DNA from: a virus
Direction: 5' to 3' (one strand)
DNA length: 64,000 nucleotides
Virus record (IMG/VR): IMGVR_UViG_3300035130_000101
Span: 1 to 64,000 of that record
Made by a program: the position numbers and the translations under genes. Below are positions 4,414-21,081 of this stretch, in pieces (position 1 is the first letter of the stretch; each line of letters opens with the position of its first letter). The notes under the pieces were generated by a model. The model searched no databases and was not told the DNA's origin. It saw only the letters and a program-made list of their open reading frames with translations.

Positions 4414-4417
4414 TTGA

Positions 4418-5688: not shown

Positions 5689-5695
5689 CTCTCTA

Positions 5696-5893
5696 TTACT
5701 CTATAAAATATATCTGAATAAATGACTGGTGATGTTCATAATAGCCTATCAAGACTAACAGAGCAAACACAAAAAAAATACCGATTAATGTTAACATTAT
5801 CAAGGTATAATAGTCACTGTATAGATCAAATGGCAATGTCCACGACAGAGCGAAATATATCAACAACAGAATACAGAAAATAATCCCTATCAT
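5696..5893 (-). CDS. small transmembrane protein
   Basis: 65 aa with two hydrophobic helices. Confidence 0.4.
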   Translation of the reverse strand: MIGIIFCILLLIYFALSWTLPFDLYSDYYTLIMLTLIGIFFVFALLVLIGYYEHHQSFIQIYFIE

Positions 5894-5895
5894 TC

Positions 5896-6832: not shown

Positions 6833-7158
6833 AGTACTTCAAACCATTTACAATAGGTGATTTTACACATAGATTCCAGTTCCAAAAAAATCATTGCTGA
6901 CGAATCACTACTCCCGGCTACTGGATTATGTACTACCTTATCAATAATCCTCACGATCTCACCAATAACGACAGATCCTTTTGTTCCTTTTTGAATGATA
7001 TTAAATTTTGTCCCAATCTCTAATAGAGGTTGAACAGAATCAACTGGGCCAAAAAAGTGTATCTCTCCGTCTTGACATATCAAGTTGACATCAACCGGCA
7101 AAGGCTCCATATCATCAGTAGTGCAAAGATAATAATTTGTATTTAATTCCCAGGTCAT
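6829..7158 (-). CDS. hypothetical protein
   Basis: 109-aa ORF with overlapping stop/start junctions to its neighbours. Confidence 0.45.
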   Translation of the reverse strand: MTWELNTNYYLCTTDDMEPLPVDVNLICQDGEIHFFGPVDSVQPLLEIGTKFNIIQKGTKGSVVIGEIVRIIDKVVHNPVAGSSDSSAMIFLELESMCKITYCKWFEVL

Positions 7159-7205
7159 AATAAACAGTCCTTTTGCTAATTACGTTCATAGATTTTCTAG
7201 GTTGC

Positions 7206-7658
7206 TCATCGCCATACAGAAACATCTGCGGTTGGGTATATTTCACAGGCTTTTAGGTATCTTCTTACAAATTCTACAAGCCCATCATAATCACCCCAAC
7301 CGTTAGATGGATTGAATTGCTTGAACCGTTCGGGGTCGCCCTCAAGTAATGCTAACCCTTTCCGAAGTGGCTCAATCAATTCGCCAGCCTTACTGATATT
7401 GATTTCATCAGGTCGCCATAAATATTGGTATATACCGGCTTCTGAGGCCATTGTGGTAAGATTATGTGTGATATTTGCGGTATAAACTTCTTTGCTATCA
7501 TCGTCGCCAATTTGGGTTATAGCCGGTTCGCACCCTGGGAATTTTTCATTCCATTCATCACGTGAAATCTCTTTTATTGAACCATTTTCACGGATAAAAA
7601 TACCCGACCCAGTCTCGTTCTTTTTATCAGGAAATATTAAGGAAACATCAAGACTCAT
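7206..7658 (-). CDS. hypothetical protein
   Basis: 150-aa ORF, co-oriented with the island. Confidence 0.5.
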   Translation of the reverse strand: MSLDVSLIFPDKKNETGSGIFIRENGSIKEISRDEWNEKFPGCEPAITQIGDDDSKEVYTANITHNLTTMASEAGIYQYLWRPDEINISKAGELIEPLRKGLALLEGDPERFKQFNPSNGWGDYDGLVEFVRRYLKACEIYPTADVSVWR

Positions 7659-7695
7659 TTTTGTACCTTTCCGCCTACAATAATGACATAGAGTG

Positions 7696-8415
7696 TTAAA
7701 TCTTGTAGATTGAGTTTATATGGTCGGTATAGATTTTGTTATAAGAATAGTCATCAAAGTAGCGGTTAATACCATCTGCCTTTTCAGACAGTTCTTTATG
7801 CGGCTCAAGCTCGTGCGTCTCGACAATGACCAACTTTGGCCGGTAACGGTCAATCGAAAAACCGTCAAGCACGTCTATCTCTGCGCCCTCAACATCGACA
7901 ATCAACACTTCAAAATCTGGCTGCCAGTTATGCTTTTCAAGCAGAAAATCGAGCGTCACCATCTCGCACTCGATAAACTTATCGGCATCAAGGCCGCTGA
8001 ATTTCGACCACTCGATACCGTTGTAGATGGCTACCATCTCCGGCTTGATAGTAGAGTTTGAGCCACCGAGGTAGAGCTTGACAGTATCATTCCTTGAGCC
8101 GATGCAACATTGCTCAAGTATTACCCTATCATTGCCTTGATAAAGTTTCTGGCAGTCTGCTATCATATCCGGCTGAGGTTCAACTAAAAGCCCCTGCCAG
8201 CCGGCCTCGATAAGGCAATGCGAATTGCTCCAATTGTAGCAGTTAAAAGCGCCGATCTCCACCACCCTCCCGTCGGTGATGTAGCCGAAATGTGACAGGT
8301 AGATGTCAACGAGATTAGGGACCTGACAGTTAGGGACGTTGATGTATCTCATCTTTTCGTATTTGGTATAACTGAGGCAATGATGACAACGATAAACCAA
8401 AATAGAGCAAACCAT
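7696..8415 (-). CDS. FkbM-family methyltransferase-like
   Basis: The pattern VVEIGAF...GWQGLLVEPQP...LVIVETHE resembles FkbM-type methyltransferases. The start is uncertain; an internal Met lies 21 codons in. Confidence 0.55.
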   Translation of the reverse strand: MVCSILVYRCHHCLSYTKYEKMRYINVPNCQVPNLVDIYLSHFGYITDGRVVEIGAFNCYNWSNSHCLIEAGWQGLLVEPQPDMIADCQKLYQGNDRVILEQCCIGSRNDTVKLYLGGSNSTIKPEMVAIYNGIEWSKFSGLDADKFIECEMVTLDFLLEKHNWQPDFEVLIVDVEGAEIDVLDGFSIDRYRPKLVIVETHELEPHKELSEKADGINRYFDDYSYNKIYTDHINSIYKI

Positions 8416-8420
8416 ATATA

Positions 8421-8430
8421 TCTCAATTCA
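8421..8430. repeat. junction palindrome half-site
   Basis: TCTCAATTCA; 5 nt from ATG 8415. Confidence 0.3.
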
Positions 8431-8528
8431 CCAGTCACCATCATTCATAAGCCTATCGTGGCAGACAAAAAACTGACGATCATTACAATAGACCAGACAA
8501 AATAAGCATATTTCGATGTCACTTTTTC

Positions 8529-8542
8529 TCAATTCAAATTGA
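8529..8542. repeat. junction palindrome
   Basis: TCAATTCAAATTGA; contains the stop codon of the aminotransferase gene (..FNLN*). Confidence 0.55.
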
Positions 8543-9659
8543 AAAAATCTCTAAACTTTTCAACGATGTAGGATAGGTCATTCAGGTTAAGCCCCTGGTG
8601 GCAGCCAATATATAGCCCGTTTCGATTCACCCAATCTGCCACCGGGTAATCGTCCGGCTCCCACAGCCCCTGGTAACACGGCTGCCGAGTCAGCGGCAGG
8701 GCCAGCCTTGATTCAATGCCGTTCTCTGCCAGGAATCGCCGCAGGTTGTTCCTTGTGCCTTCTTGCCGACAAACGAGCGGGTACATCTGAAAAGCGTGTT
8801 CTGAGTGTGACCGGATAGCCGGCAATTGTAGCCGGTCCTCAAGTGACGCTAAATGCTCTGTCAGATAGGCGGCGTTCTCTTGCCGGTGGCTGATAATTTC
8901 CGGTAGATCGTCCAGTTGCGCCAGACCCAGCGCAGCCTCAAGTTCAGTCATCCTAAAGCTATGGCCCACTCGCTTGAAGTCAAATTTGCGCCCAAGCCAG
9001 GTATGATCGTAATGCTGGCCAGTCGGTAGCTCATTAAGGTCAATTCCGTGGTTGACCAGTGACCGCATATAGAGTGCATATTCGGGATTGTCGGTAATAC
9101 CCAGGCCGCCAACTCCGGTCACAAGGATATGAGCCATATAGGTAGAGAAACAAGAAATGTCACCAAACGAGCCAACTGGATAACCAAAGCGGGTGACAAG
9201 CATCGCCTCGCAGGAATCCTCTATGACCTTGATCTTGCTGCCGTAGATAGCAAACGGGGCAACCGTCCGGCTCAACTCATCTATGGCGCTGGCTTGTCCA
9301 AAGATGTGGACCGGGATAATGCACTTGGTATTCTCGTTGATTGCCGCTTCGATCTTGGTGTAGTCAAGATCATAGTACCGGCTATCCACGTCAACCAGTA
9401 CCGGCTTTAATCGCAAGTGCAAAACGACGTTGACCGTAGCCACAAACGTAATAGCTGGAATGATAACCTCGCTGCCGTCCGGCCAGCCGTGCATCTCCTT
9501 TAGCGTCTGCAAAGCCACCAAGAGCGATGACGTGCCGCTATTGGACAATACTCCATACTGGCAATTGTGCATCTGAGCAAAGCGGGATTCGAACTCTCTC
9601 GACATCTGACCGTAGGACAACCGGCCGGTATCTAAAACCTGATTGACCAATTGTTGCAT
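8529..9659 (-). CDS. DegT/DnrJ/EryC1-type PLP-dependent sugar aminotransferase
   Basis: LSYGQMSREFESRFA...NSGTSSLLVAL... is the typical family pattern. Start taken at the internal ATG 9659, 1 nt after the upstream stop; the track ORF extends to 9749. Confidence 0.8.
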   Translation of the reverse strand: MQQLVNQVLDTGRLSYGQMSREFESRFAQMHNCQYGVLSNSGTSSLLVALQTLKEMHGWPDGSEVIIPAITFVATVNVVLHLRLKPVLVDVDSRYYDLDYTKIEAAINENTKCIIPVHIFGQASAIDELSRTVAPFAIYGSKIKVIEDSCEAMLVTRFGYPVGSFGDISCFSTYMAHILVTGVGGLGITDNPEYALYMRSLVNHGIDLNELPTGQHYDHTWLGRKFDFKRVGHSFRMTELEAALGLAQLDDLPEIISHRQENAAYLTEHLASLEDRLQLPAIRSHSEHAFQMYPLVCRQEGTRNNLRRFLAENGIESRLALPLTRQPCYQGLWEPDDYPVADWVNRNGLYIGCHQGLNLNDLSYIVEKFRDFFNLN

Positions 9660-9660
9660 T

Positions 9661-10485
9661 TTAGGCGTAGCTTGGAATGTCCCAAGTGCTATTTTGTTCA
9701 AGGCTCTTCTCCTGAAAAGCCCAGGTAGAAGGCCGGAACAGGTTGTCACCCGTCATAATAATTTGTTTGCCGGTATATTCTTGCATAACAGACCTGATGT
9801 CATTCAGGTTTTTTATCCTGGTTTCAAGTTCTTCATTATCTGATTTCTCAATACCAAATGAGGCCGATTCATAAGCAAGACCGTTACATTCGATATAGCG
9901 GAACCGTTCAGCAATGAGAAGCCATTCAGCGTCAACGCCTGCGCCGTTTGCTGTTGATTCAGCTACAATTTTTTGAGCCACTGGTCTGGAAAGCCCACGA
10001 GAGCCTGATAGTATATCTACATTGTAGCCAAAAAGACGATTGCACTCCAACTCGGTAATTCTTTGCAATTCGGGGTGGGTATTAAATGCCTGTTCGGTTC
10101 GGCCAAAAACAACGAAATCGTATAGAGGAATGTGATTTACTACACTTCGCAATTCATCGGGATAATTGATTATCCAGTAAAGCACTCTGTCAAAATCGCA
10201 ATAATGAAAATGATCGGCTTGAGTTTGCAATCCGAAATTGATACTCATTCTTCGAGCCTGAGCCAAGCCACCCATAGCTTGGACTTTGGCAGCCTCACCT
10301 AGTAAGTCAATTACCTTACCGTCTGTAGTATCCGTCACGACAACAACTATGCTGTCATATATTCGCTGCAATTCAGGCAGATATAATGAGATAGCGTCGA
10401 TGAGCTTTCCATCAGAATCGTGAAGGGCTGATAAAAGAGTGGTCACAATAAAGCCCTTTTTACTACTTCTTTTGTCTGTCCTCAT
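9661..10485 (-). CDS. hypothetical protein
   Basis: 274-aa ORF within the sugar island; no motif recognised. Confidence 0.55.
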   Translation of the reverse strand: MRTDKRSSKKGFIVTTLLSALHDSDGKLIDAISLYLPELQRIYDSIVVVVTDTTDGKVIDLLGEAAKVQAMGGLAQARRMSINFGLQTQADHFHYCDFDRVLYWIINYPDELRSVVNHIPLYDFVVFGRTEQAFNTHPELQRITELECNRLFGYNVDILSGSRGLSRPVAQKIVAESTANGAGVDAEWLLIAERFRYIECNGLAYESASFGIEKSDNEELETRIKNLNDIRSVMQEYTGKQIIMTGDNLFRPSTWAFQEKSLEQNSTWDIPSYA

Positions 10486-10673
10486 TTATTACATCGATAT
10501 AGATAGTGATAGTTTATGTAGTTGAATTTAGTATTTTTGATTTCTTCTTTAGAGGGAACGTCTGAAACCCAATCGTCAATCTCTTGCCAATTGTGCCTAC
10601 ACTTTTTCACGAATAGAGATCTTATCTTGTTCATAGCGCCCCAATGTATCTGAGTAGCACAATTACGACCCAA
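10482..10673 (-). CDS. hypothetical small protein
   Basis: 63-aa ORF; overlaps 10631..10819, so one of the two may be spurious. Confidence 0.3.
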   Translation of the reverse strand: MGRNCATQIHWGAMNKIRSLFVKKCRHNWQEIDDWVSDVPSKEEIKNTKFNYINYHYLYRCNK

Positions 10674-10819
10674 ATAAAAAATGCTGTAAGTCCCAGGCCG
10701 ATTATCAGGGATATTACTCCACCGACAATTGAGGCTATTTTTATCCGCCTGAAATCTCTATCGAAATCATCTGACATTTTTTGAAACCGTTTATCAAAGT
10801 CACTCATAATCCAAACCAA
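10631..10819 (-). CDS. small transmembrane protein
   Basis: 62 aa with a C-terminal hydrophobic helix (IASIVGGVISLIIGLGLTAFFIWVVIVLL). Confidence 0.4.
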   Translation of the reverse strand: MVWIMSDFDKRFQKMSDDFDRDFRRIKIASIVGGVISLIIGLGLTAFFIWVVIVLLRYIGAL

Positions 10820-11531
10820 ACCTTTCCTTCAATTCCTGTCTGTCTGTCATCTTCAGTCCCGGTATCCCGCTCCGGTCGTGATAGTTCCATTGCCCCCGTT
10901 GGATGACGTTGACGTGCCGCAGCGGAGCCTGCCGGGTGCCGAGTACCAACCAATCGGGGTGGTTGTTTACCCTGCCAGCCATCTCTATCTGTTGGGCCGT
11001 TTCACCGGGGACAAGCACCTCTCTCAGTAAGTCTCGCCGCCACATTCCACCCCAGAGTGACATATGGTACTGGCTATTCGGGTCGCTCTTAATCAGGTCG
11101 AGATAGCCCAGAGTATCATAGGTATTGTAGCCCCAATAGAACTGATTGTAGCCTTCTGGTGGCGTGCCTGAGTAAAGCCGCTCATCAGCCAGGTCGAACT
11201 TGAGAACGTTGGTATACTGGTGCATATAGTCGTAGATCATCTGGACGGCTTTGGTGTCAACGGGACGGGAAAGAAAATAATCATCGAGCATAAGGATAAA
11301 GACTTCATCGGCTACGGTGTCCAGTACCTTTATGAGTGCATCGCTCCATTTGTTGGCCGGGTAATTTTTGAATTTGCCGATAGAGTAGAAATTGGAATCA
11401 CACTCAATTCTGGTATAGCCGCAAGTCAGGCGAGTATGCTCAAGTCCGTTAAAATATTTGGTCCACTGATACCAAAAGGGGGGAATAGTCCACTGCTGAT
11501 TGTCGCTGGTCATTACAATTACTTGTATCAT
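10800..11531 (-). CDS. hypothetical protein (possibly glycosyltransferase-like)
   Basis: 243 aa. MIQVIVMTSDN...FILMLDDYF is weakly GT-A-like. The guess rests on context only. Confidence 0.5.
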   Translation of the reverse strand: MIQVIVMTSDNQQWTIPPFWYQWTKYFNGLEHTRLTCGYTRIECDSNFYSIGKFKNYPANKWSDALIKVLDTVADEVFILMLDDYFLSRPVDTKAVQMIYDYMHQYTNVLKFDLADERLYSGTPPEGYNQFYWGYNTYDTLGYLDLIKSDPNSQYHMSLWGGMWRRDLLREVLVPGETAQQIEMAGRVNNHPDWLVLGTRQAPLRHVNVIQRGQWNYHDRSGIPGLKMTDRQELKERFGLDYE

Positions 11532-11594
11532 CGGTTCCTCTACAAAAAATATCCGGGTCTCTGTATGCCGGATGGGATTAAATGTTGTTATCGG

Positions 11595-12494
11595 TTACGT
11601 TCCTTTGTTTCCTCTATACCATTCTATCGTTTGCCTTAACCCATCTATCAGCGACGTTTCCGGCTGCCACCCTAACAGTGACTTAGCTCGGCTATTATCA
11701 TATAGCCGTCTTTTCTCACCAGTAGGCTTTGTCTTATCCCAGGCGACGGTGCCATCGAAACCGGTCAACTCAACCAATAAATCAACCAACTCAGCAATCG
11801 ACACCTCTTGATTAGACGAGATATTGACCGGCTGACCCACGTCGGTATCAATGAATTTGGACAGGGCCTTTGCCACGTCACCAGCATACAGAAAATCTCT
11901 AGTAGCCTTGCCGTCGCCCCAAATGGTAACAACCTCTTTGGCCTCGATAAACTTACGTACCAAGGCAGCTATGACGTGGCCGCTTTCTCCAAAGTTGTCT
12001 CTTGGACCATACATATTAACCGGAATAGGATACTCAAAAGCCATCCCGTACTGCTCGCGGCAGGCTTCCAGTTGCGCCAGGGCCACCCGCTTACTAATGC
12101 CATATGAACCATTAGACTTTTCAGGATAGCCACTCCACAGGTTGCCCTCTTTCATCGGCAATAGCGGAAAGTCAGGATAAGCGCAAACCGAGGAGACAAA
12201 CACGAACTTCCCGACGCCAATCTCAGCACACTTCTGGATAAGCTGAGTATTCATCATCACATTGTCATAATAGATGCTGGCCGGGTTTGCCATATTGTAG
12301 GAAATGCCGCCGACGTTGGCCGCTAGGTGGTAGACGATATCGGGCTTGACAAAATGATCGAAAAGGGCATCAATATGATCATGTTGCCGCAGGTCATAGG
12401 CGCGGGATAGAACGGGGTAAACGTCGTGGTCACTTAAGAGGGGGTAGAGATGGCTGCCAAGAAAGCCAGCGGAGCCGGTCAGGAGTATCTTCAT
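11595..12494 (-). CDS. NAD-dependent sugar epimerase/reductase (SDR, GDP-fucose-synthase-like)
   Basis: Rossmann motif LLTGSAGFLGSHL and catalytic YGISK (YxxxK). Start taken at ATG 12494, with a GAGGA RBS and an ATGA overlap with the upstream stop. Confidence 0.8.
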   Translation of the reverse strand: MKILLTGSAGFLGSHLYPLLSDHDVYPVLSRAYDLRQHDHIDALFDHFVKPDIVYHLAANVGGISYNMANPASIYYDNVMMNTQLIQKCAEIGVGKFVFVSSVCAYPDFPLLPMKEGNLWSGYPEKSNGSYGISKRVALAQLEACREQYGMAFEYPIPVNMYGPRDNFGESGHVIAALVRKFIEAKEVVTIWGDGKATRDFLYAGDVAKALSKFIDTDVGQPVNISSNQEVSIAELVDLLVELTGFDGTVAWDKTKPTGEKRRLYDNSRAKSLLGWQPETSLIDGLRQTIEWYRGNKGT

Positions 12495-12673
12495 TGCCGT
12501 TTCCTCATTGCCAGCCATACCTCATCGGCCGTCGGCTTGCGCACTTTTTCCGCCGCCAAGTAGGTTTGCAGAATCCAGACGATATGCGCCGTCTTGCTAC
12601 GCTGTGCTTTTTGGGCGCTGGCGGTTAGTTGGGTATTGAGTTTATCGGGTAAGCGTAGGGTGAAGCGGGTCAT
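12491..12673 (-). CDS. ribbon-helix-helix (CopG/Arc-like) protein
   Basis: MTRFTLRLPDKLNTQLTASAQKAQRSKTAHIVWILQTYL shows the beta-alpha-alpha pattern. Confidence 0.65.
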   Translation of the reverse strand: MTRFTLRLPDKLNTQLTASAQKAQRSKTAHIVWILQTYLAAEKVRKPTADEVWLAMRKRQ

Positions 12674-12699: not shown

Positions 12700-12999
12700 C
12701 TAGCCGTAGCCGTAGCCGTCGCCGGAGCCGTAGCCGTAGCCGTCGCCGGAGCCGTAGCCGTCGCCGGAGCCGTAGCCGTCGCCGTAGCCGTCGCCGTCGC
12801 CGGAGCCGTAGCCGTCGCCGTAGCCGTCGCCGTAGCCGTAGCCGTAGCCGTCGCCGGAGCCGGAGCCGTAGCCGTCGCCGGAGCCGGAGCCGTAGCCGTC
12901 GCCGGAGCCGGAGCCGTCGCCGGAGCCGTAGCCGTCGCCGTAGCCGTCGCCGGAGCCGGAGCCGTAGCCGTCGCCGTAGCTAATCAATGCGCTGTCCAC
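12700..12999 (-). CDS. Gly-Tyr-Ser-Asp repeat protein (low complexity)
   Basis: 99 aa made almost entirely of GDGYGS-type repeats. Its start overlaps the stop of 12984..13274. The mirror plus-strand frame encodes RS repeats. Confidence 0.55.
   Translation of the reverse strand: MDSALISYGDGYGSGSGDGYGDGYGSGDGSGSGDGYGSGSGDGYGSGSGDGYGYGYGDGYGDGYGSGDGDGYGDGYGSGDGYGSGDGYGYGSGDGYGYG
12703..12975. repeat. imperfect tandem repeats (GCCGTAGCCGTCGCCGGA-type, 6/18-bp units)
   Basis: Visible run of GCCGTA/GCCGTC/GCCGGA hexamers encoding GYGDGS repeats on the minus strand. Confidence 0.85.
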
Positions 13000-13274
13000 T
13001 CTGGAACCTCCTCAATCGACTGCCGGGCTTTCGGCGTACAATCCAAAATCTCAATGGCTTCGGTCAAAGTGACCAAAGTGACAGCGACGGGGAATTTGCA
13101 ATCATTGGGCTTGCTTACTCCCCGAACGGCCAACTCAGATAATGAGGCTGCCCCTGACCAGTACCACAAGCGTCGGGCATTGGTCAAAACGACTTCCTTA
13201 CCATTCCGGCTTTCCAATTCGCCTGCAAAAACACCGGCGCTGTACGTTCTGACAATTACATACTTCTTGTCCAT
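12984..13274 (-). CDS. conserved phage protein of unknown function
   Basis: 96 aa with YSAGVFAGEL...NARRLWYWSGAASLSELA. AGGGAG RBS; preceded by a promoter and the palindrome motif. Confidence 0.6.
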   Translation of the reverse strand: MDKKYVIVRTYSAGVFAGELESRNGKEVVLTNARRLWYWSGAASLSELAVRGVSKPNDCKFPVAVTLVTLTEAIEILDCTPKARQSIEEVPEWTAH

Positions 13275-13487: not shown

Positions 13488-14144
13488 TCACAGGTGGTTA
13501 CGTGTGTCAACACATCTCATATACCTGGCAATTGTGCCGGACTTGAGACCGGTTAGCTCGCGCACTACTGCCGGTCCGTCATCCTCTAATCGGTGAACAA
13601 TGCCAGACTGATAGATCGTCATCGCTGTTACCGGCTTAGTGATTTCCTGTTCCCTAGCCACCCTTTTGATATGGTTAGTCAGCGTAGACACGGACGTATG
13701 TCCACCTCTGGACACTGACTTTTTAACAATATCTCCCGGTCTGGTCAAGTTATGATAAGCCTCTCTGGCTAAAATCTGATAAAGTAATGGTAAGCCAGTT
13801 ATAACCGCCTTTACCTGCCCCCGGCTTATAGTCTCTACCAGTTTTGTTTTGTGCAGAGTTGATACCATCCGAACTTCGACGGGCTTTCCAATGTCATCAA
13901 AAAACATACTAATCGCCCGCTTCGCTTGGTTGGTAGTAGATCGGGAGTATTCGCCGGGCCGGACCATCCAGGCCAAATACTCGTCAATATGCCATTGCTC
14001 AAGCTCGGATAATTTGATCGGAGCGTGAAATTTGGCAAGCTCGATTATCCAGCGGGAATAGAGCCGGACGGTATTTTTGGACAGGCCCGCAAAGGCGCTG
14101 TCTAATTTTTGTTGTAACTCATTTGATGGTTTCATATTTGACAT
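13488..14144 (-). CDS. short tyrosine-recombinase-like protein (SAM-like N-domain; catalytic signature incomplete)
   Basis: 218 aa. The N-terminus (TVRLYSRWIIELAKFH...IDEYLAWM...YSRSTTNQAKRAISMFFD) looks like an integrase core-binding domain. LTRPGDI (box I Arg) and ARY (Tyr) can be placed, but HxxR and the Lys hairpin cannot be found by eye. Confidence 0.6.
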   Translation of the reverse strand: MSNMKPSNELQQKLDSAFAGLSKNTVRLYSRWIIELAKFHAPIKLSELEQWHIDEYLAWMVRPGEYSRSTTNQAKRAISMFFDDIGKPVEVRMVSTLHKTKLVETISRGQVKAVITGLPLLYQILAREAYHNLTRPGDIVKKSVSRGGHTSVSTLTNHIKRVAREQEITKPVTAMTIYQSGIVHRLEDDGPAVVRELTGLKSGTIARYMRCVDTRNHL

Positions 14145-14165
14145 TATAGCACGTTTTGGTATAAT
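14138..14165 (+). promoter_or_regulatory. sigma70-type promoter directed into the cassette array (Pc-like)
   Basis: TTGACA (14138-14143), 16-nt spacer, TGG-TATAAT (14160-14165). The -35 overlaps the recombinase-like start codon. Confidence 0.65.
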
Positions 14166-14193
14166 ATCAAGTAAGATATAGTGTTATGATATT

Positions 14194-14202
14194 GTTAGAT
14201 TG
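14194..14202 (+). repeat. attI-like core box GTTAGATTG
   Basis: Matches GTTRRRY and lies 2 nt before ATG 14205. Its complement (8/9) opens the first repeat at 14404. Confidence 0.5.
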
Positions 14203-14204
14203 CT

Positions 14205-14411
14205 ATGGTTTATCTTGGTTACGTTTACGATGAAATGTCATACTGCCCGGAGTTGGTTGGTGTGTTTGCCACCAAACCTGCCGCTTACCGTGCAGTTAGA
14301 AAACGGATCAAAGAGATGATTATAGAGCATTGGGAGTGTTGGGCGGGAGGACGATACCGCCACGATTACCATTTTACGTGGCGTATTAAACCCGTTGAAC
14401 CAGCAACCTAA
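14205..14411 (+). CDS. cassette ORF 1 (68 aa, unknown)
   Basis: ORF track. The stop TAA lies inside box CAACCTAAC. Confidence 0.6.
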   Translation: MVYLGYVYDEMSYCPELVGVFATKPAAYRAVRKRIKEMIIEHWECWAGGRYRHDYHFTWRIKPVEPAT

Positions 14412-14491
14412 CAACGGCTTACAGCGGACGGATTGACCTGGCCGTTTACATCGACCGCCCTGGCCGCCGCTGAAGCCGGGGCGTTATACGG
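14404..14491 (+). repeat. attC-like site 1 (88 bp)
   Basis: R'' CAACCTAAC, R' GTTATACGG. Arms 14415-14431 and 14464-14478 pair 15/15, with bulged A14421 and A14428. Confidence 0.7.
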
Positions 14492-14521
14492 CACGTTGCC
14501 AACAGAGTCCGGAGTAATTGT

Positions 14522-14896
14522 ATGTGGTACAAAAAATACCCTAAATTAAATTCAGCACTATTCACGTATGAGAATAGTGGCAAGCGGAGCAACGACCCGC
14601 CCCCGTATTCGTTAGTTGAGCGTGGTGGCGAACTGATAGACATTGAAGATAAATATTCGGTGTCGGGCTACAAAATTTTAGGCTACACGGAAAGCCCGCC
14701 GTTCCCGGCAGAAGGGTATCCAGCCGTAGCTGTCCTTTTTGAAAATCAATCGTTTGAAAAAATTTGGTGGCACTATCCCTGTAATGAGCCGTATAACAAT
14801 CAAAATGCAGGGGACGCCCCAAGCTCGATTTTACAGCCGCCTAATCTTGTGGCTCCAAGTCGGAGTAGGCGGCGAACTAATAAAACGCGCCCCTGA
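14522..14896 (+). CDS. cassette ORF 2 (124 aa, unknown)
   Basis: GGAG RBS. The last ~36 codons run into attC-like site 2. Confidence 0.55.
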   Translation: MWYKKYPKLNSALFTYENSGKRSNDPPPYSLVERGGELIDIEDKYSVSGYKILGYTESPPFPAEGYPAVAVLFENQSFEKIWWHYPCNEPYNNQNAGDAPSSILQPPNLVAPSRSRRRTNKTRP

Positions 14897-14914
14897 TTTT
14901 GGGGCGTTAGGCGG
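14789..14914 (+). repeat. attC-like site 2 (126 bp)
   Basis: R'' CCGTATAAC is the exact complement of 14483-14491; R' GTTAGGCGG. Arms 14801-14817 and 14887-14901 pair 15/15, with bulged G14807 and A14814. Confidence 0.7.
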
Positions 14915-14941
14915 ATTGCCGCTAGAAAAGGAGTTGATCTT

Positions 14942-15229
14942 ATGAATGATGTAGATAGGCGACTGATGCAAGACAAACAAGACCAGCTTTTGGCCGTGGC
15001 GAAAAAAGCGATGGTTCAACAGAAAGAAATCAACGAATTGCATCAGGCATTAACGCGAATCGCATCGTACGATACCCCCGACGAGATACGCCAAGACGCG
15101 GCTGATGAATATGGCCTAGATTACGAAGAAGCCTTGGAAATGGCCTATGAAAACATTATCCAGGAGGCCAAATCAATGCTTGGCAAATATCCCCCTAACA
15201 AGCCGGTGGAGCCGACCGGACAATCTTAA
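14942..15229 (+). CDS. cassette ORF 3 (95 aa, acidic, unknown)
   Basis: AAGGAG RBS. The C-terminal ..YPPNKPVEPTGQS is encoded by the left arm of attC-like site 3. Confidence 0.6.
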   Translation: MNDVDRRLMQDKQDQLLAVAKKAMVQQKEINELHQALTRIASYDTPDEIRQDAADEYGLDYEEALEMAYENIIQEAKSMLGKYPPNKPVEPTGQS

Positions 15230-15278
15230 TTTTCAAGACCAGGCCCAGGCCGGCGGCTCACCGGCGGGCGTTAGGCGG
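15191..15278 (+). repeat. attC-like site 3 (88 bp)
   Basis: R'' CCCCCTAAC, R' GTTAGGCGG. Arms 15202-15219 and 15250-15265 pair 16/16, with bulged G15208/9 and A15215. Confidence 0.7.
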
Positions 15279-15303
15279 CTTCGCTGCGAAAGGAACAATC
15301 GAA

Positions 15304-15723
15304 ATGGGTACGTATTGGGATGGGAATGGAAAGTATCAAGAATGGTCAGACAAACTCGAAGATCAAGTCCCTATGTCTGGCCGGGCTGAAAAATTGCACA
15401 TTGATCTAGTGCGTAATATCAGCAATTGTTATTATGACCACTTCAACAATGGTAACTGCAATTGGGGGAACAAAAGCGAACAATTTGCACACATCGAATA
15501 CCACGCCGATGCACTTCACGAAGCAGCACTGGCCGAAGGCATTGAAAATATCCGTAGTTTACTGTCGTCTATTCGTTCCCCGTTGGACGCTGATTTTGCA
15601 AAAAATTTGTTTTACTGCGGCGAAGATGCAGAGGACTTGGAAGAAAATTGGGAAAAGCTGGCAGATATTATTATCGGTTGGGCGTGGAAGGTTGAGCAGT
15701 CTTTACCAGTACCAGCCGCCTAA
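15304..15723 (+). CDS. cassette ORF 4 (139 aa, unknown)
   Basis: AAAGGA RBS. The stop TAA lies inside box CCGCCTAAC. Confidence 0.6.
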   Translation: MGTYWDGNGKYQEWSDKLEDQVPMSGRAEKLHIDLVRNISNCYYDHFNNGNCNWGNKSEQFAHIEYHADALHEAALAEGIENIRSLLSSIRSPLDADFAKNLFYCGEDAEDLEENWEKLADIIIGWAWKVEQSLPVPAA

Positions 15724-15844
15724 CAAAAAATTGTACCCGAATTGCTACTGTTCGTTTCAACAACGGCCACACGCTGGCAATCTCGGTTTAAATTGCGGCT
15801 CTTAACGCCAAGCCGCAATCGGGTAAATTTAGGGCGTTAGCTGG
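15716..15844 (+). repeat. attC-like site 4 (129 bp)
   Basis: R'' CCGCCTAAC, R' GTTAGCTGG. Arms 15728-15745 and 15815-15830 pair 16/16, with bulged G15733 and A15740/1. An inner hairpin lies at 15792-15819. Confidence 0.7.
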
Positions 15845-15870
15845 CTCATTGCCAGTGGAGGCGAGTGGAA

Positions 15871-16059
15871 ATGCTAGAATGTCCTGATTGCAAAATTCCG
15901 TTTGAGGTGGTAAGAATACATCGCCGCCACCAGACTGCTTTTAAAAATATGAATGCCGCTGTGAAATGGTGTCCGTTTTGTGGTCGCCAGCTAACAAAGC
16001 AATTCAAGCGGACTGAGCAACCGTCACAGTCCGATCAATCATTAGAGTCTGCCGCTTAA
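15871..16059 (+). CDS. cassette ORF 5 (zinc-ribbon-like, 62 aa)
   Basis: CPDCK...CPFCG. ATG 15871 with a GGAGG RBS; the track starts at GTG 15865. Confidence 0.55.
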   Translation: MLECPDCKIPFEVVRIHRRHQTAFKNMNAAVKWCPFCGRQLTKQFKRTEQPSQSDQSLESAA

Positions 16060-16075
16060 TTGCGGCGTTAGGCGG
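15987..16075 (+). repeat. attC-like site 5 (89 bp)
   Basis: R'' CCAGCTAAC is the exact complement of 15836-15844; R' GTTAGGCGG. Arms 15999-16013 and 16051-16063 pair 13/13, with bulged C16005 and A16012. Confidence 0.7.
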
Positions 16076-16080
16076 ATAAA

Positions 16081-16293
16081 ATGATAGAAAACTACATTTG
16101 TATCGAACAACGGAAACGGATTGGTAGTATCGTTTACGACGATGTCATACTCGAACTAGAACGATTTGCAGATAGGATAGAAATAGAGATGTCGAACAGT
16201 GACGATCACAATGTACATATTAGGATAAATATTGAGCAGGCAAAAAAGTTAGCTGAGTTCATAGGCGGTTTTGTTGGTATGGTATCCGCTTGA
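16081..16293 (+). CDS. cassette ORF 6 (70 aa, unknown)
   Basis: The ATG is 5 nt after box GTTAGGCGG, which can serve as the SD. Confidence 0.55.
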   Translation: MIENYICIEQRKRIGSIVYDDVILELERFADRIEIEMSNSDDHNVHIRINIEQAKKLAEFIGGFVGMVSA

Positions 16294-16359
16294 CTTTACG
16301 CCGCAGGGTCGTTCACCCGCCACGGCCCTGGCAGCGGCACAACGGCGGGTGTTAGGCGG
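16286..16359 (+). repeat. attC-like site 6 (74 bp, degenerate)
   Basis: R'' CCGCTTGAC (7/9), R' GTTAGGCGG. GC-rich imperfect hairpins lie between them, with no clean two-bulge pattern. Confidence 0.4.
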
Positions 16360-16364
16360 ACAAA

Positions 16365-16580
16365 GTGGCAAAAATATATGGTGTGACAAAAATACATTTT
16401 CTGGCAGAGCCATTAGTGATAATTGGCGAGAAAAAGATGACGTTGGAAATGGCAGAACGTTGGCTTGCCAGAGAACACGGTGAAAATGCAGAAGTAGACG
16501 CAATCAATTGCACATCAATATATGATGACCGTGATTATTATATTTTGGGGATTGTAGAAAATAGCAACCAATCCGCCTAA
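16365..16580 (+). CDS. cassette ORF 7 (71 aa, unknown)
   Basis: GTG start 5 nt after GTTAGGCGG. The stop TAA lies inside CCGCCTAAC. Confidence 0.5.
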   Translation: MAKIYGVTKIHFLAEPLVIIGEKKMTLEMAERWLAREHGENAEVDAINCTSIYDDRDYYILGIVENSNQSA

Positions 16581-16701
16581 CAAATCGTTCGTAGCGAATT
16601 GCTAACCTTGTTTTTTATTGTGGTCGGTTGGGGCCACTACCGCACATTAACCCGCAGGCATTGTGCCAACCCGCAATCGCCACAACTCAAGCGTTAGGTG
16701 C
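16573..16701 (+). repeat. attC-like site 7 (129 bp, paralog of site 4)
   Basis: R'' CCGCCTAAC, R' GTTAGGTGC. Arms 16587-16602 and 16673-16686 pair 13/14, with bulged C16590 and A16597. Confidence 0.65.
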
Positions 16702-16705
16702 TTGT

Positions 16706-16993
16706 ATGAAAAATCCACGGTGGTTAATGGTAACAAGAAAAATCACAGATGGTTTAGTGCTGGTTTGGTCGCCGGAATGCAATGAGCAATTATGGGCGTT
16801 AGGTAACAGGCCAGGATATAAACATCACAATTGCGCTATCTGTAATAGAGAAATTCCAAAAAATACAGAAAAAATGTACAGACCTGTGGGAAATCCACGC
16901 AATAGAATGTGCAGAATTTGCCAAGACTGCGCTTTGATGAACCACCCACCTAACAAACATTTGCAGCCCGACCCCGACAGCCGCCGCAAATGA
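16706..16993 (+). CDS. cassette ORF 8 (Cys-rich zinc-finger-like, 95 aa)
   Basis: ATG 4 nt after GTTAGGTGC. HHNCAICN...CRICQDC. The C-terminal ..HPPNKHLQPDPDSRRK is encoded by the attC-like arm. Confidence 0.55.
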   Translation: MKNPRWLMVTRKITDGLVLVWSPECNEQLWALGNRPGYKHHNCAICNREIPKNTEKMYRPVGNPRNRMCRICQDCALMNHPPNKHLQPDPDSRRK

Positions 16994-17068
16994 GACGGCT
17001 GCGGGCGTGGGCACATCGGTATCAAGCGAGCCGCCGCAGGCGGGCGGCTGAAATGTGGCGTTATATGG
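16946..17068 (+). repeat. attC-like site 8 (123 bp)
   Basis: R'' CCACCTAAC, R' GTTATATGG. Arms 16957-16968 and 17046-17056 pair 11/11, with bulged G16963; pairing is irregular beyond that. Confidence 0.6.
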
Positions 17069-17080
17069 CTAGGAGGAAAA

Positions 17081-17329
17081 ATGATCTACGACGGACTGCT
17101 GGTTTACGGTGACAATTTCAATCCAGGTGCCGTTTGTCCGCATTACCTGCCAGAGAGCCAATACACTTTTACGTGGTATCGCAACGAGGACGGTATCCCG
17201 GTTTTGAGCGGTTACGATCCTAAAGATGATTTGGCTACAGATTGGCTTTGTGTGTGCGGCCACTATGAAACTGGAGGCTGCTGCTGTAGGCACTGTGGCG
17301 CTGAACCGCCGTGGGGCTGTATGTGCTAA
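17081..17329 (+). CDS. cassette ORF 9 (Cys-rich, 82 aa)
   Basis: AGGAGG RBS; CVCGHYETGGCCCRHCGAEPPWGCMC. Confidence 0.6.
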   Translation: MIYDGLLVYGDNFNPGAVCPHYLPESQYTFTWYRNEDGIPVLSGYDPKDDLATDWLCVCGHYETGGCCCRHCGAEPPWGCMC

Positions 17330-17332
17330 CAG

Positions 17333-17442
17333 CCATATAACAAACATTTGCAGCCGACCGCCCAGGCTGCGGATAACGAAGATCAAGCGCAATCATAGTC
17401 ACATTTCACCGTGGGCGGCGGCTGAAATGTGGCGTTACTTCT
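17333..17442 (+). repeat. attC-like site 9 (110 bp, paralog of site 8)
   Basis: R'' CCATATAAC is the exact complement of 17060-17068; R' GTTACTTCT. Arms 17344-17364 and 17412-17430 pair 19/19, with bulged G17350 and A17357. Confidence 0.7.
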
Positions 17443-17443
17443 T

Positions 17444-17689
17444 ATGCAAAACAAGCAAAAATATTCAGCGCGTCAAATTATACCACCTCAGTTAACAGAT
17501 ACCGATAAAGAGCGATTTATCACAAATAGCAAGGCTCATATGTTGTTCGACCTGGCTATAAAACTGGCTGACAAAGGCGACGAACTTACAATTGAGGTAA
17601 AATTTGAGGAATATAAAACCAAACACTATGACACACCCTGGCTGAATGAAAGCCGGGTTGATATGGTTGCGTGGGTAACAACCCCGTAA
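17444..17689 (+). CDS. cassette ORF 10 (81 aa, unknown)
   Basis: ATG 17444; the track starts at GTG 17429, inside site 9. Confidence 0.5.
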   Translation: MQNKQKYSARQIIPPQLTDTDKERFITNSKAHMLFDLAIKLADKGDELTIEVKFEEYKTKHYDTPWLNESRVDMVAWVTTP

Positions 17690-17738
17690 CCTAACAAATC
17701 ATTCAAGCGGAATTGCTGATCTTGGTTTTTATTGCGTC
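17682..17738 (+). repeat. attC-like site 10, left half only (truncated)
   Basis: ..GTAACCTAACAAATCATTCAAGCGGAATTGC.. matches the left arms of sites 5 and 7. No right arm or GTTRRRY box follows. Confidence 0.45.
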
Positions 17739-17746
17739 AGTTATAG

Positions 17747-17775
17747 TTGCTAAATAACAGTATTGGAGGTATAAT
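17747..17775 (+). promoter_or_regulatory. sigma70-type promoter
   Basis: TTGCTA, 17-nt spacer, TATAAT. Confidence 0.55.
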
Positions 17776-17780
17776 AACCG

Positions 17781-17860
17781 TGTTCAGGATAGCATAACTC
17801 AATGGGCGCATTTTTTATTTAACGTGGCCCCCATCGGCTAAAAGAGTGCTATCCTGAACA
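17781..17860 (+). promoter_or_regulatory. structured 5' leader (14-bp perfect inverted repeat)
   Basis: TGTTCAGGATAGCA (17781-17794) pairs with TGCTATCCTGAACA (17847-17860). It starts at about the predicted TSS, upstream of 17905..18300. Confidence 0.4.
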
Positions 17861-17904
17861 AATAGCGCCGGCCGGTGGGGGTCTCCATTTTTAAGGGAGG
17901 AATA

Positions 17905-18300
17905 ATGATATACTTTAGATCAAGAAAATATAAGTCTACCTTTAATTGTTCCTTTATGGCAAAAGATGGCCAAAACATTGATGATTTGTCAAGGTGTCAG
18001 ATAGGCGATTCAGTATCAATTATATTCGACATTCCGCAGAAAATTGCAGACATGGTAAGTGAGAGTGGGCTATCTGATAGTGCTGGAATACGCATTTACA
18101 AAGATAATAATACTTATTCAGTTCATATTCCATTCAAGATAATCGAGCGTGATCATTCGTTCTCTTGGAATGATATCGGCACTTTACAAACCCTAGGAAC
18201 ATCAATTTACGTTGAGGCAAAAAGCGGATACTGGGAAGATATGTTCAAATGGATATGCCTGAATGAAAGACCAATATGGGCAGTGGAAGATGAACAATGA
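17905..18300 (+). CDS. hypothetical protein
   Basis: AAGGGAGG RBS before ATG 17905. ATGA overlap with the endonuclease gene. Confidence 0.55.
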   Translation: MIYFRSRKYKSTFNCSFMAKDGQNIDDLSRCQIGDSVSIIFDIPQKIADMVSESGLSDSAGIRIYKDNNTYSVHIPFKIIERDHSFSWNDIGTLQTLGTSIYVEAKSGYWEDMFKWICLNERPIWAVEDEQ

Positions 18301-19493
18301 AACGTATCTTCACTATCGAACAGGACAAAGAAGTTGCCGAGCTATACCAGCAGGGAATGTCATCTATCAAGCTCGCCGAGCAATATGGCGTTGACAAGTC
18401 AACGGTCTTGGGGGCGTTGAAACGGCAAGGGATAAGGCGGAGAACTAATAGAGCCTTTACCAGAGGTGAAGAGCAACAGATAGCTCACATATATCAAGCT
18501 GGACACAAGATAACGGACATTGCAAAAGCGTATGGCTATGATTTCACTACTATTAAAAATGCCCTCAAGAGACAAGGAGTTAAGCAAGGGGATGACCGGT
18601 TTACTTTTTCGGCCACACAAGAAAAGGAGATACTTGAAGAGTACAAATCTGGAAACAAGATGGCCGATATTGCAAAAAAATATCAGGCATCCCCAGGAAC
18701 AATATCTAAAGCGATAACCAATCAGGGTGGCAAGGTCAGAGACGGACGCATCTTTACTGATAGCGAAGAAGTAATGATAGGCCACATTTACGAATCCGGC
18801 TTTAGCCCTCAGCAAATTTCAGTGGCGTATGGCGTATCACGTAGCGCAATTATAAATACAATAGATAGACGTGGGATTGATAAGCGCCCTAACAGAAAAA
18901 ACTTTTTTGACGAAAAGGCTTTTGATAGTCTTGACAGTGAAGCCCCCCTATATTGGCTTGGCTTTTGTTATGCCGATGCCAATGTAACTAACTATGAACT
19001 CAGGATTGGACTTGCTATCAAGGATATAGATCACTTGCAGTTACTGGGAGATTTTATGCAAAGTGATAAGACGGTAAAAAAATATCGAAATAATACAGCT
19101 TGTCAATTGAGCTTTGCTAGCGTGTATCTTACAAAAAGGTTGCACTCATTAGGATTGATAGCAGGTAGAGGTGAATTTGAAAAGCTCGTGCCGCATATTC
19201 CCGATAATCTGGCTCATCATTTTATTCGCGGATATCTTGACGGTGACGGCTGCATTACTGAAAGTAATTATCTTATCAGATTTCTAGGGCAAGTTGATAT
19301 ACTGGAATGGATTAGAAATATCCTTCATAGTAATGCAGGTGCTAGCAATTCCGTTTCTATTAAAAAACGGAGGGGCATCTACAGTATTGGATGGGGAGGC
19401 CGATATCAAGGTCCTAAAATAATAGACTATCTTTATAAAAATGCGACTATATATCTCGATAGAAAAAGAAAAGTAGCAAGAAGTTGGAAATAA
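18297..19493 (+). CDS. LAGLIDADG homing endonuclease with four N-terminal HTH repeats
   Basis: Motifs LYWLGFCYADANV and HFIRGYLDGDGCI. There are four ~49-aa repeats (F(T)..E...Y..G....IA..YG....TI..AL.RQG). Confidence 0.8.
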   Translation: MKRIFTIEQDKEVAELYQQGMSSIKLAEQYGVDKSTVLGALKRQGIRRRTNRAFTRGEEQQIAHIYQAGHKITDIAKAYGYDFTTIKNALKRQGVKQGDDRFTFSATQEKEILEEYKSGNKMADIAKKYQASPGTISKAITNQGGKVRDGRIFTDSEEVMIGHIYESGFSPQQISVAYGVSRSAIINTIDRRGIDKRPNRKNFFDEKAFDSLDSEAPLYWLGFCYADANVTNYELRIGLAIKDIDHLQLLGDFMQSDKTVKKYRNNTACQLSFASVYLTKRLHSLGLIAGRGEFEKLVPHIPDNLAHHFIRGYLDGDGCITESNYLIRFLGQVDILEWIRNILHSNAGASNSVSIKKRRGIYSIGWGGRYQGPKIIDYLYKNATIYLDRKRKVARSWK

Positions 19494-19545: not shown

Positions 19546-21081
19546 TTATAACCAAACGGCATATTTGCTGCCGGTGCTTCTCAGTGAAATTCCGCCGTCC
19601 ACCCAGTGGGCGCTCTCGGCGTCGGCTTCTCTCAGGTGACTGATCGGCGCATACTTCACGTTTTGGAGCCTTCCAGCCAATTGGGGCGTCCGCAACACCA
19701 CCCGCTGTTCCGTCTTGCACAGCCCCTTGAGACAGAAGTTGATATCGTTCCAGGCCCAGGCGAACACGCCCCGGTCGGTCCAGAACCGCTGCACGTTGCG
19801 AATGAGATTGAACTCGGTCATTGCCTGCCGATAATCTTTGTGCTGGCGGTAAGTGACGGGGAAGTTGCCGGTCGTCCGCAGCGGAACCATATAGATGTCG
19901 CTGGCGTACTCGCCCGGATCGAGACTGGCCGGCGTGTTGGTGTTGTTCTGTTCGTAGATGCCGGTGTCCTCAATGACCTTGTACGTCCGGCCATTGACGG
20001 CAATCTGGCCCATCACCCGCATATTGTCCCGGTCCTGAATGTTCGAGCGACCGTCCAGCGTCACTCGCGCATTGCTGGCCGCAGCGATGGCAATGGCTAC
20101 CTGGTCGGTATTGTAGGCAATCGGCCATACCCTGGACATCTCATACCACAGTTGAGGCCGCATCGCAAAGACCCACTCAGCCGGTAGCATCCCGGTATCA
20201 GCCGCCAACGTGTAGATGAAATACTCCATCATCGATATCTGGTTGACCAGGGCCGTGGCATTGGAAGCCACATCAGCATAGGCAAAGTTGTCGATATAGC
20301 TATCCAACGACGGACAGGCAGTGTTTGTGTCGGCGTCAACCTGGCCCGTGGCAATCTGGTTGTCAAGGCCGGGGAACTCTTTATAACCACCGCCGATGTT
20401 GTTGTTGGCCGGGCTGCCTTGCCACATATGCGTGGTAAGAAGCCGCTCCAGCCGCACCCCGACGCTGACCATCTGGGACATCGTTACCAGGTTCAAAATC
20501 TGATTGGGATTCAGGCCGCCGGGCATCAACCCGGCTTGTGTTCCCATATTCAGATTCATCCCGTGTAGTACCAGGTCCGAGAAGTCACCCCGGTTGATAC
20601 GTAGACCAAGTTCGTCCATTTCGATAGTTTCAGTCGAACGGGCCACCCGCCCGAATTGCGCCGTCAGGTTACAGGCTTTCAAGTAGCCCGTGGGCGCATC
20701 CTCGCAGGGCGTCGCCGGTTCGTTGCCGATGTCATCCGAAAAGCCGGACAAAGCCCCAAAGCGCGGATCTTCGTCATTGTTCGGCAGAAGCGGCAAAACG
20801 GATGAAATGCCGTGTGGCTGGACGTGGGTCGAGATGATGTCACGTTCCAAACCAAGAGTGGAGAAGGTGCCGCGCAAGCCGTGAAGCTTTTGAGCAGTCA
20901 TCGTGGTGGCCGGCGCTTTGGTAATCAGGTCGTTGACCATTTCCATTGCCTTGACCTGAAATTCCTTGTCGCTGTTAGTCTGGCCGATCTGGTTGGCCGC
21001 CAGCGCCGCCAGAAGCGCCTGATTTTGCTGAATCAAGCCCATCAGTTGTTCAGAACTCATTGTGTCACTCATTGCCGCCAT
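19546..21081 (-). CDS. putative major capsid protein
   Basis: 511 aa. It lies directly downstream of the scaffold-like gene in the head module and is followed by a strong terminator. The call rests on position and size only. Confidence 0.55.
   Translation of the reverse strand: MAAMSDTMSSEQLMGLIQQNQALLAALAANQIGQTNSDKEFQVKAMEMVNDLITKAPATTMTAQKLHGLRGTFSTLGLERDIISTHVQPHGISSVLPLLPNNDEDPRFGALSGFSDDIGNEPATPCEDAPTGYLKACNLTAQFGRVARSTETIEMDELGLRINRGDFSDLVLHGMNLNMGTQAGLMPGGLNPNQILNLVTMSQMVSVGVRLERLLTTHMWQGSPANNNIGGGYKEFPGLDNQIATGQVDADTNTACPSLDSYIDNFAYADVASNATALVNQISMMEYFIYTLAADTGMLPAEWVFAMRPQLWYEMSRVWPIAYNTDQVAIAIAAASNARVTLDGRSNIQDRDNMRVMGQIAVNGRTYKVIEDTGIYEQNNTNTPASLDPGEYASDIYMVPLRTTGNFPVTYRQHKDYRQAMTEFNLIRNVQRFWTDRGVFAWAWNDINFCLKGLCKTEQRVVLRTPQLAGRLQNVKYAPISHLREADAESAHWVDGGISLRSTGSKYAVWL

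Follow-up and report, generated by a model that had tools for sequence, protein, structure and literature searches.

A 64,000-nucleotide stretch of viral DNA (IMG/VR virus record IMGVR_UViG_3300035130_000101, positions 1 to 64,000; hereafter "the window") carries a short minus-strand gene, which we call mini-IntI, at the head of an array of small gene cassettes separated by attC recombination sites. The encoded protein belongs to a conserved family that resembles the integron integrase IntI and has lost most of its catalytic residues. The remainder of the window is a tailed-phage genome, encoding a large terminase, a tape-measure protein, a minor tail protein, helicases, a DnaC-like loader and a DNA methyltransferase. 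An earlier note on this DNA had described a recombinase-like gene spanning 13488-14165; the gene itself covers 13488-14144, and positions 14145-14165 belong to the promoter.

The mini-IntI open reading frame (ORF) encodes 218 amino acids. A second ATG at 14135 offers an alternative start that would give 215 amino acids, and this start was chosen in two independent gene calls of near-identical or related proteins (P0001 and P0003). Pfam identifies a single domain in the window protein, the SAM-like core-binding domain PF13495 (residues 17-85, E 9.5e-14), in agreement with the N-terminal half proposed in the earlier note; the catalytic domain PF00589 gives no match. Across 19 aligned family members, all 19 match the SAM-like domain and one matches PF00589, at a sub-threshold E of 6e-4, while five show weak matches to helix-turn-helix (HTH) families. 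An NQA motif of the core-binding domain does not vary among members. Of the NCBIfam models, that of the integron integrase, TIGR02249, matches best; it covers residues 19-129 only and scores 46 bits against a cut-off of 265, below the family threshold. Both halves of the protein are basic (pI ~9.8), as is the family as a whole (median pI 9.8).

A phmmer search of the PDB returned one match, the Vibrio cholerae integron integrase VchIntIA (2a3v), in two blocks: residues 22-118 of mini-IntI align with 19-118 of VchIntIA, and residues 143-190 with 235-282. The 24 residues 119-142 of mini-IntI therefore replace 116 residues of IntI. In the second block VTAMTIYQSG, the sequence noticed earlier in the place of the expected HxLRH, lies under VTCHTLRHSF of VchIntIA. 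We compared a profile of the 19 mini-IntI members with one of 14 full-length IntI-like proteins using hhalign, which related them with 99.5% probability (E 4e-23). Alignment extends over the core-binding domain and the first catalytic-domain helices as far as the conserved Tyr of "LLYGxGLR", after which ~92-95 residues of IntI are missing; the alignment then picks up at "RRHH..LQKA" and runs on to the Tyr helix. The gap spans box I (GLR..E), the GKGxKDR hairpin with the catalytic Lys, and the IntI-specific insertion (I2 helix region), so both absences suspected from the sequence, that of the Lys β-hairpin and that of the insertion, fall within one deletion. The C-terminal "SPLD" tail of IntI likewise has no counterpart.

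Within the canonical catalytic set of Arg-I, Lys, His-II, Arg-II, His/Trp-III and Tyr, Tyr208 alone is conserved in the family (Table 1), and it aligns with the nucleophile position in hhalign, where the earlier note had placed the terminal Tyr. The same note had assigned the box I Arg to a residue near position 135. In both the window protein and its nearest relative, R135 does lie five residues past the conserved Tyr of "LLYGxGLR", the correct box I spacing. It is no conserved catalytic residue, however: of 19 members, only 2 have Arg in this column and 10 have Pro. Four of the five non-nucleophile residues are thus lost from the window protein, and the fifth is represented only by the non-conserved R135. 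Profile alignment therefore yields clear integrase homology together with an incomplete R-K-H-R-H/W-Y set. These alignments and the structure model described below support the derivation of mini-IntI from an integron integrase, and the sequence argues against catalysis by mini-IntI of either attI × attC or attC × attC recombination.

An AlphaFold2 model built from the family alignment has a mean predicted local distance difference test score (pLDDT) of 92.1. Its top Foldseek match in the PDB is VchIntIA (E 7e-8), followed by XerA, lambda Int, XerH and Cre, and its viral matches are integrases without exception; comparison with VchIntIA thus bears out an integrase fold for the reduced protein. 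A HMMER search of 1.84 billion representative proteins identified ~17 clusters (50% identity) of 183-236 amino acids that matched over their full length, whereas ordinary ~320-residue integrases matched in the N-terminal half only. A tblastn search of mini-IntI against 50,697 GenBank phage records found no match, and locus searches with narrower alignments recovered nothing beyond an IMG/VR contig already known and a metagenome fragment of 1.4 kb. For the window gene paired with its orthologue in contig L001 (about 74-76% protein identity), the ratio of nonsynonymous to synonymous substitution rates (dN/dS) is 0.13 overall; the N-terminal half alone gives 0.14 and the C-terminal half, in which dS is saturated, ~0.08. 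Mini-IntI is therefore a rare, conserved family, with proteins of 183-239 residues, under purifying selection.

This bears directly on the suggestion that the protein is "degenerate or non-catalytic". The catalytic loss is real, with the residues gone; decay is contradicted by the dN/dS of ~0.13, the constant length, the pLDDT of 92 and the conserved platform. Chromosomal integrons and class 2 integrons often carry inactivated intI genes, and catalytic residues are gone here too, which is what a decaying intI pseudogene beside a fossil array would look like. We nevertheless find that reading scarcely credible: dN/dS is low in both halves, the ORF is intact and of constant length across ~17 divergent clusters, the fold is confident, promoters and attI are conserved, and cassettes have been exchanged recently. 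We reject it on dN/dS and family conservation.

Upstream of mini-IntI, two promoters face in opposite directions (Table 1), with the -10 element of each sitting on the -35 element of the other. The outward one, Pc, reads into the cassette array, and its -35 overlaps the mini-IntI ATG at 14142-14144, as had been noticed from the sequence. The transcript from Pint, the mini-IntI promoter, would be leaderless or nearly so. Downstream of Pc lies an attI-like site, whose GTTA box pair at 14183-14198 reads GTTATGATATTGTTAG; the predicted crossover point is between G14194 and T14195. Consistent with such a boundary, homology of the window with the platforms of contigs L001, L010 and L030 stops at 14197-14198, the attI GTTA. 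The Pc/Pint region and an attI motif GKTAWT-N6-GTTAG are kept at the DNA level in L001, L003 and L007, although mini-IntI itself is only 27-30% identical to the window protein in L003 and L007, compared with about 74-76% in L001.

The array encodes plus-strand ORFs of 68, 124, 95, 139, 64, 70, 71, 95, 82 and 86 amino acids, all Pfam orphans save for one weak Zn-ribbon match. The sites between them have the form YTAAC...inverted repeat...GTTRRRY. In a simple attC scan of the window, seven of the nine best-scoring attC-like sites lie within the 3.5-kb array, and the bottom strands of several fold into a hairpin with an R-box stem, an unpaired spacer and single-base bulges (z down to -4.0). The sites, their folds and their clustering in the scan show that the integron-like array recognized earlier around the gene is real. 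An attC pattern common to the window and L003 was not found in exact form in IMG/VR. At the distal end of the array only half an attC remains, whose 3' arm appears, from the sequence, to have been replaced by the insertion that follows.

Table 1. Features of the mini-IntI platform, the catalytic positions of mini-IntI and the cassette array. Nucleotide positions refer to the window; family counts are for the 19 aligned members.
Feature	Position	Strand	Description
mini-IntI gene	13488..14144	-	218-aa ORF; short IntI-derived protein
Core-binding domain of mini-IntI	~aa 17-118		kept N-terminal part
Catalytic domain of mini-IntI	aa 119-218		reduced helical remnant
Arg-I (box I, placed by spacing)	R135		family P 10, R 2, others 7
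Lys (β-hairpin)			deleted in mini-IntI
His-II	M175		family K, M, T, S, Y, I, R, V
Arg-II	Y178		family H 6, R 5, Y 4, Q 3, F 1
His/Trp-III	L200		family always L, I, V or M
Tyr nucleophile position	Y208		family Y 18, F 1
Pc-like outward promoter	14138..14165	+	TTGACA-16 nt-TGnTATAAT; 12/12 sigma-70 consensus, extended -10
Pint, mini-IntI promoter	14143..14170	-	TTGATA-16-TATAAT; 11/12, TG present
attI-like site	14183..14200	+	two GTTA boxes 11 nt apart, GTTATGATATTGTTAGAT
Cassette array	14195..17734	+	~10 cassettes, each with one small ORF
attC 1	14409..14489	+	TAAC...GTTATAC; score 10; bulged bottom-strand hairpin, z -3.0
attC 2	14794..14912	+	closes cassette 2 (14484-14906), common to L010
attC 3	15196..15276	+	score 11; R-box pairing and bulged stem, z -3.3
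attC 4	15721..15842	+	arms 80% identical to an L010 attC
attC 5	15992..16073	+	5' arm GCTAACAAWGCAATTCAAGCGGAC common to L003
attC 6	16300..16357	+	short, degenerate R'' box, z ~0; weakest call, missed by the attC scan
attC 7	16578..16699	+	72-80% identity over 120-140 nt to Chloroflexota attC sites
attC 8	16951..17066	+	found in the attC scan
attC 9	17338..17440	+	best canonical hairpin: R-box stem, unpaired central spacer, two single-base bulges; z -4.0, score 15.5
Half attC (R''/L'' arm only)	17690..17734	+	distal array end

With nine to ten attC sites and no catalytic intI, the locus has the composition that defines a cluster of attC sites lacking integron integrases (CALIN; at least two attC sites, no intI nearby). 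Measured against a complete integron it lacks a functional intI and possesses attC-bounded cassettes exchanged between the G and the TT of GTTRRRY. By IntegronFinder criteria it would most likely be reported as a CALIN, with its conserved head hidden.

We identified family members on six further contigs: L001 (the same contig as L002 and L009), L003, L007, L010, L030 and L032. Wherever the sequence is long enough, these contigs resemble phage genomes, encoding a tape-measure protein, Dit, DnaB or Acb5. Attachment sites resembling attC are found on the divergent side of the mini-IntI gene in all six, and the window gene, too, has the placement of an intI gene, divergent from attI, Pc and the attC array. 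Mini-IntI is the only gene present in all seven loci; beyond it, the loci share cassette 2 (window and L010) and three weak matches between two loci each. We found no conserved neighbor in the seven loci able to supply the missing catalytic half, and since no other gene is common to all of them, none stands out as a catalytic partner that has split off. Just past the far end of the array, a 511-residue protein (19546-21081, minus strand) is 29% identical to a 470-residue protein in the same relative position in L003 (4838-6250), and the platform therefore holds a fixed slot in the genome of this phage group.

Cassettes move between these phages. Cassette 2 is 86.5% identical to a cassette of L010, where it occupies another position in the array. 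The homology extends from GTTATAC of the preceding attC to just past GTTAGG of its own attC, with unrelated flanks, and the platform proteins of the two contigs are only 35% identical. This is the signature of site-specific exchange between G and TT, and an active recombinase must therefore work on these phages.

Where that recombinase resides is suggested by the attC sites themselves. The earlier note had raised the prospect of a recombinase elsewhere in the phage or in its host. For the window this did not hold: a search with an IntI-like profile found no second IntI/Xer-like ORF in the 64 kb, although a very distant lambda-type integrase could escape such a profile, and PHROG scans found no integrase among the 20 largest ORFs. 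For the host lineage it is plausible. The 19-nt 3' arm of attC 7 occurs in 16 GTDB genome stretches, with ~4 matches expected by chance; 12 of the 16 are from Chloroflexota (Caldilineaceae, Anaerolineales and Promineifilaceae), and in 10 of the 16 attC homology extends over 120-140 nt. One of them, in a Caldilineaceae metagenome-assembled genome (L024; JAGRCP010000015.1), encodes a complete 332-residue IntI (PF00589, E 4e-38) with R, K, HxxR, H and Y all visible, and within the same 8-kb stretch carries an attC near-identical to attC 7 ~3.7 kb from this intI. Likely hosts therefore own complete integrons with the same attC type, and the host is probably a Caldilineaceae-like Chloroflexota bacterium, as judged from these shared sites. 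Adjoining intI in L024 is a cassette (171-3217) encoding a short prokaryotic Argonaute (pAgo; PADLOC pAgo, E 2e-269) and a helical restriction endonuclease (REase) family nuclease partner (E 6e-46). It is closed by an attC nearly identical to attC 7, and thus one attC type serves host defense and phage cassettes.

Action of a bacterial enzyme on such sites has precedent, since bacterial IntI1 is reported to recombine phage-borne attC sites in trans, as shown experimentally (Qi et al, 2023; PMC9892861). Integrases of full length are also present among viral sequences: at least 390 IMG/VR stretches encode full-length IntI-like proteins, with 45-53% identity to the first sequence of the profile among the best 80 of the 390. 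Integron-integrase-like genes thus appear far commoner on viral-classed contigs than the handful reported.

Taking these observations together, we favor, with moderate confidence, a model in which mini-IntI is a non-catalytic, att-site-binding platform protein of a phage integron and a host IntI exchanges strands in trans. In this model mini-IntI would bind the GTTA boxes of the phage attI, and possibly those of attC, beside the overlapping Pc and Pint promoters. Once bound, it would mark or organize the site and may tune transcription, and a full-length host IntI would cut and rejoin attC × attI and attC × attC in trans. DNA binding by mini-IntI, its precise role and the use of a host IntI are what we infer from the retained domains, the platform and the shared attC type.

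Several points weigh against this model. Tyr208 is kept in 18 of 19 members, which is unexpected if the chemistry is wholly lost; countering this, one member has Phe, and a T-x-x-[RK]-Y ending also resembles that of an ordinary HTH. Both DNA binding by mini-IntI and the action of a host IntI on these phages are deductions, and the proposed host is assigned by attC similarity. The window may represent ~3/4 of the genome, with ~20 kb outside it, because related contigs (IMGVR_UViG_3300022682_000042 and 3300042731_008413) are 82-83 kb long; a full-length recombinase could therefore be encoded elsewhere in the phage. Finally, the elements with which IntI reads the extrahelical bases of attC are gone, so binding of folded attC is doubtful and the model leans on attI.

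The promoter architecture invites a different view, in which mini-IntI is purely a transcription regulator that binds the GTTA boxes, which lie upstream of its own promoter, and switches or throttles the overlapping, mutually exclusive promoters with no role in recombination. The mutual overlap of the Pc and Pint -10 and -35 elements is kept across very divergent members, the attI boxes at 14183-14198 sit where a bound protein would form a roadblock, ~10-25 nt past the expected Pc start, and the protein is basic with HTH-like C-terminal helices (the weak Pfam matches). What such regulation leaves unexplained is the constant tie of the gene to attI and an exchangeable array rather than to ordinary operons, and the promoter spacer contains no conserved operator distinct from attI. 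As the sole function of the protein it strikes us as possible but doubtful; regulation as such is compatible with a platform protein acting alongside host IntI, and the two are not exclusive. The retention of DNA-binding parts and not catalytic ones, as read from the sequence, would also suit a dominant-negative decoy that sits on att sites or pairs with host IntI and blocks the host integrase. Such a decoy might keep the phage array from being excised, or prevent the host, during infection, from moving silent defense cassettes into an expressed position, and the matching host integron does have a short pAgo and nuclease defense cassette beside intI. Against it, the conserved attI and exchanged cassettes argue that recombination is used rather than blocked; we hold a decoy, with either purpose, to be quite improbable.

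The retained Tyr208 raises the further question of whether mini-IntI takes an active part in strand exchange, either as a self-sufficient, non-canonical Tyr208 recombinase or as an obligate subunit of a mixed synapse, occupying non-cleaving positions beside host IntI. We consider such participation, taken over both forms, unlikely. Were the mixed synapse to prove true, the system would be a "split" integron, combining phage-encoded site recognition with host-borrowed chemistry. A minimal, divergent active enzyme would have Tyr208 attack the DNA while other basic residues stand in for the missing ones, perhaps within mixed tetramers with host IntI; conceivable substitutes, themselves improbable, are R/K207 and, in some members, K/R at 175 and H/R at 178. 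Besides Tyr208 in 18 of 19 members, a basic residue precedes this Tyr in 15 of 19, cassettes are clearly exchanged among phages with mini-IntI, and the IntI/Xer-like profile search found no other recombinase in the window. Yet in tyrosine recombinases, losing either active-site Arg abolishes catalysis. In the mini-IntI family neither Arg position is conserved: the box I column holds Pro in 10 of 19 members, and the Arg-II column H, R, Y, Q or F. The Lys hairpin has been deleted, only aliphatic residues occur at His-III, and Phe replaces the Tyr in one member; the C-terminal tail for tetramer assembly and the helix for attC extrahelical bases are both gone as well. The lack of conservation at either Arg, the loss of the Lys hairpin and the Phe at the Tyr position together make a minimal active enzyme very unlikely.

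Several further features lie around the platform. The arms of attC 8 and attC 9 are near-identical, with a 21-nt identical 3' arm (GGCGGCTGAAATGTGGCGTTA), and their cassette ORFs differ; judging by these arms, the two cassettes are probably from one source integron. Past the half attC, a 14-bp perfect inverted repeat (17781-17794/17847-17860) precedes a 141-residue ORF, and the region to 19493 continues with a 398-residue protein containing repeated HTH motifs and an endonuclease domain (phrog_4645, E 7e-55). This arrangement (17690-19493 in all) looks like the result of a homing-endonuclease insertion that severed the last attC.

On the other side, directly downstream of mini-IntI, lies a gene for a DUF6948 protein (12984-13274, minus strand; PF22253, E 2e-33). 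Two genes downstream of mini-IntI, a 99-residue ORF (12700-12999, minus strand) consists almost entirely of Gly-Tyr/Gly-Ser/Gly-Asp repeats (GDGYGSGSGDGYG), encoded by ~12-16 copies of an 18/24-nt tandem repeat at 12701-12980. It is followed by a 60-residue ORF (12491-12673, minus strand) whose N-terminus resembles a ribbon-helix-helix protein. Neither the DUF6948 gene nor the 60-residue ORF is conserved beside other family members. A sugar-modification cluster (1312-12518) adjoins the platform and encodes a 1033-residue multi-glycosyltransferase, an aminotransferase and an NAD-dependent epimerase. Genes for glycosyltransferases or epimerases also lie beside the platform in the two distant relatives L003 (11057-15459) and L032 (1435-3566), and these genes may serve DNA or surface glycan modification. 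An Rfam scan of the window at gathering thresholds found no match, and a tRNA scan found none.

The integrase is what defines an integron, and phage attC clusters have so far been taken as orphaned fragments. The locus described here suggests instead a conserved integron platform maintained in phages, probably of Chloroflexota, in which what is left of the integrase is a non-catalytic protein still preserved by selection and the attC type is common to host chromosomal integrons. If the host enzyme is indeed borrowed, these phages would tap the bacterial cassette pool without the cost of an active integrase, and integron finders that require intI would overlook a whole class of platforms.

Among known proteins, FimB and FimE, of ~200 residues, have a complete catalytic domain without a core-binding domain. 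They are similar to mini-IntI in size and opposite in architecture, as mini-IntI keeps the core-binding domain and has its catalytic domain gutted. IntI2* of the class 2 integrons of Tn7 is inactivated by an internal stop codon, and its cassettes can be moved by another IntI in trans; it results from a single recent nonsense mutation that can revert to an active enzyme. The parallel lies in a platform whose own integrase is non-catalytic and whose cassette movement needs a recombinase in trans, as we propose for mini-IntI. The difference is that mini-IntI is an old, diversified family, formed by an in-frame deletion and held under purifying selection. Reuse of a recombinase DNA-binding module without catalysis is described for the plant ALOG domain, a non-catalytic, retroposon-derived DNA-binding domain originating from a XerC/D-like N-terminal domain (PMC3537659). 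By that description ALOG is an unrelated lineage with the N-terminal domain only, whereas mini-IntI keeps part of the catalytic domain and stays by recombination sites.

The closest likeness is to IntI itself (TIGR02249; 2a3v). The two share the core-binding domain, the position of the gene, the retained helices of the catalytic domain and the position of the Tyr, and differ in length (~215 versus ~320 residues), in the deletion of ~92-95 residues, in the substitution of HxxR and His-III, in the absence of the SPLD tail and in the location of mini-IntI in phage genomes. The mini-IntI family may thus be seen as a natural dissection of the parts of IntI needed for site recognition and for catalysis. 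Our literature searches turned up no account of a conserved short protein of IntI origin at the head of phage attC arrays, and the CALIN section of the study describing attC clusters in phage genomes makes no mention of such a head protein (Qi et al, 2023; PMC9892861). The phage CALINs as presented there are likewise attC-bounded phage cassettes without a functional integron integrase; the array in the window differs from them in its conserved head, made up of an IntI-derived protein, a consensus Pc and attI and recurring in seven loci. Against the integrons and attC clusters already reported in phages (PMC9892861), what appears to be new is an integron platform whose integrase became a conserved pseudo-enzyme.

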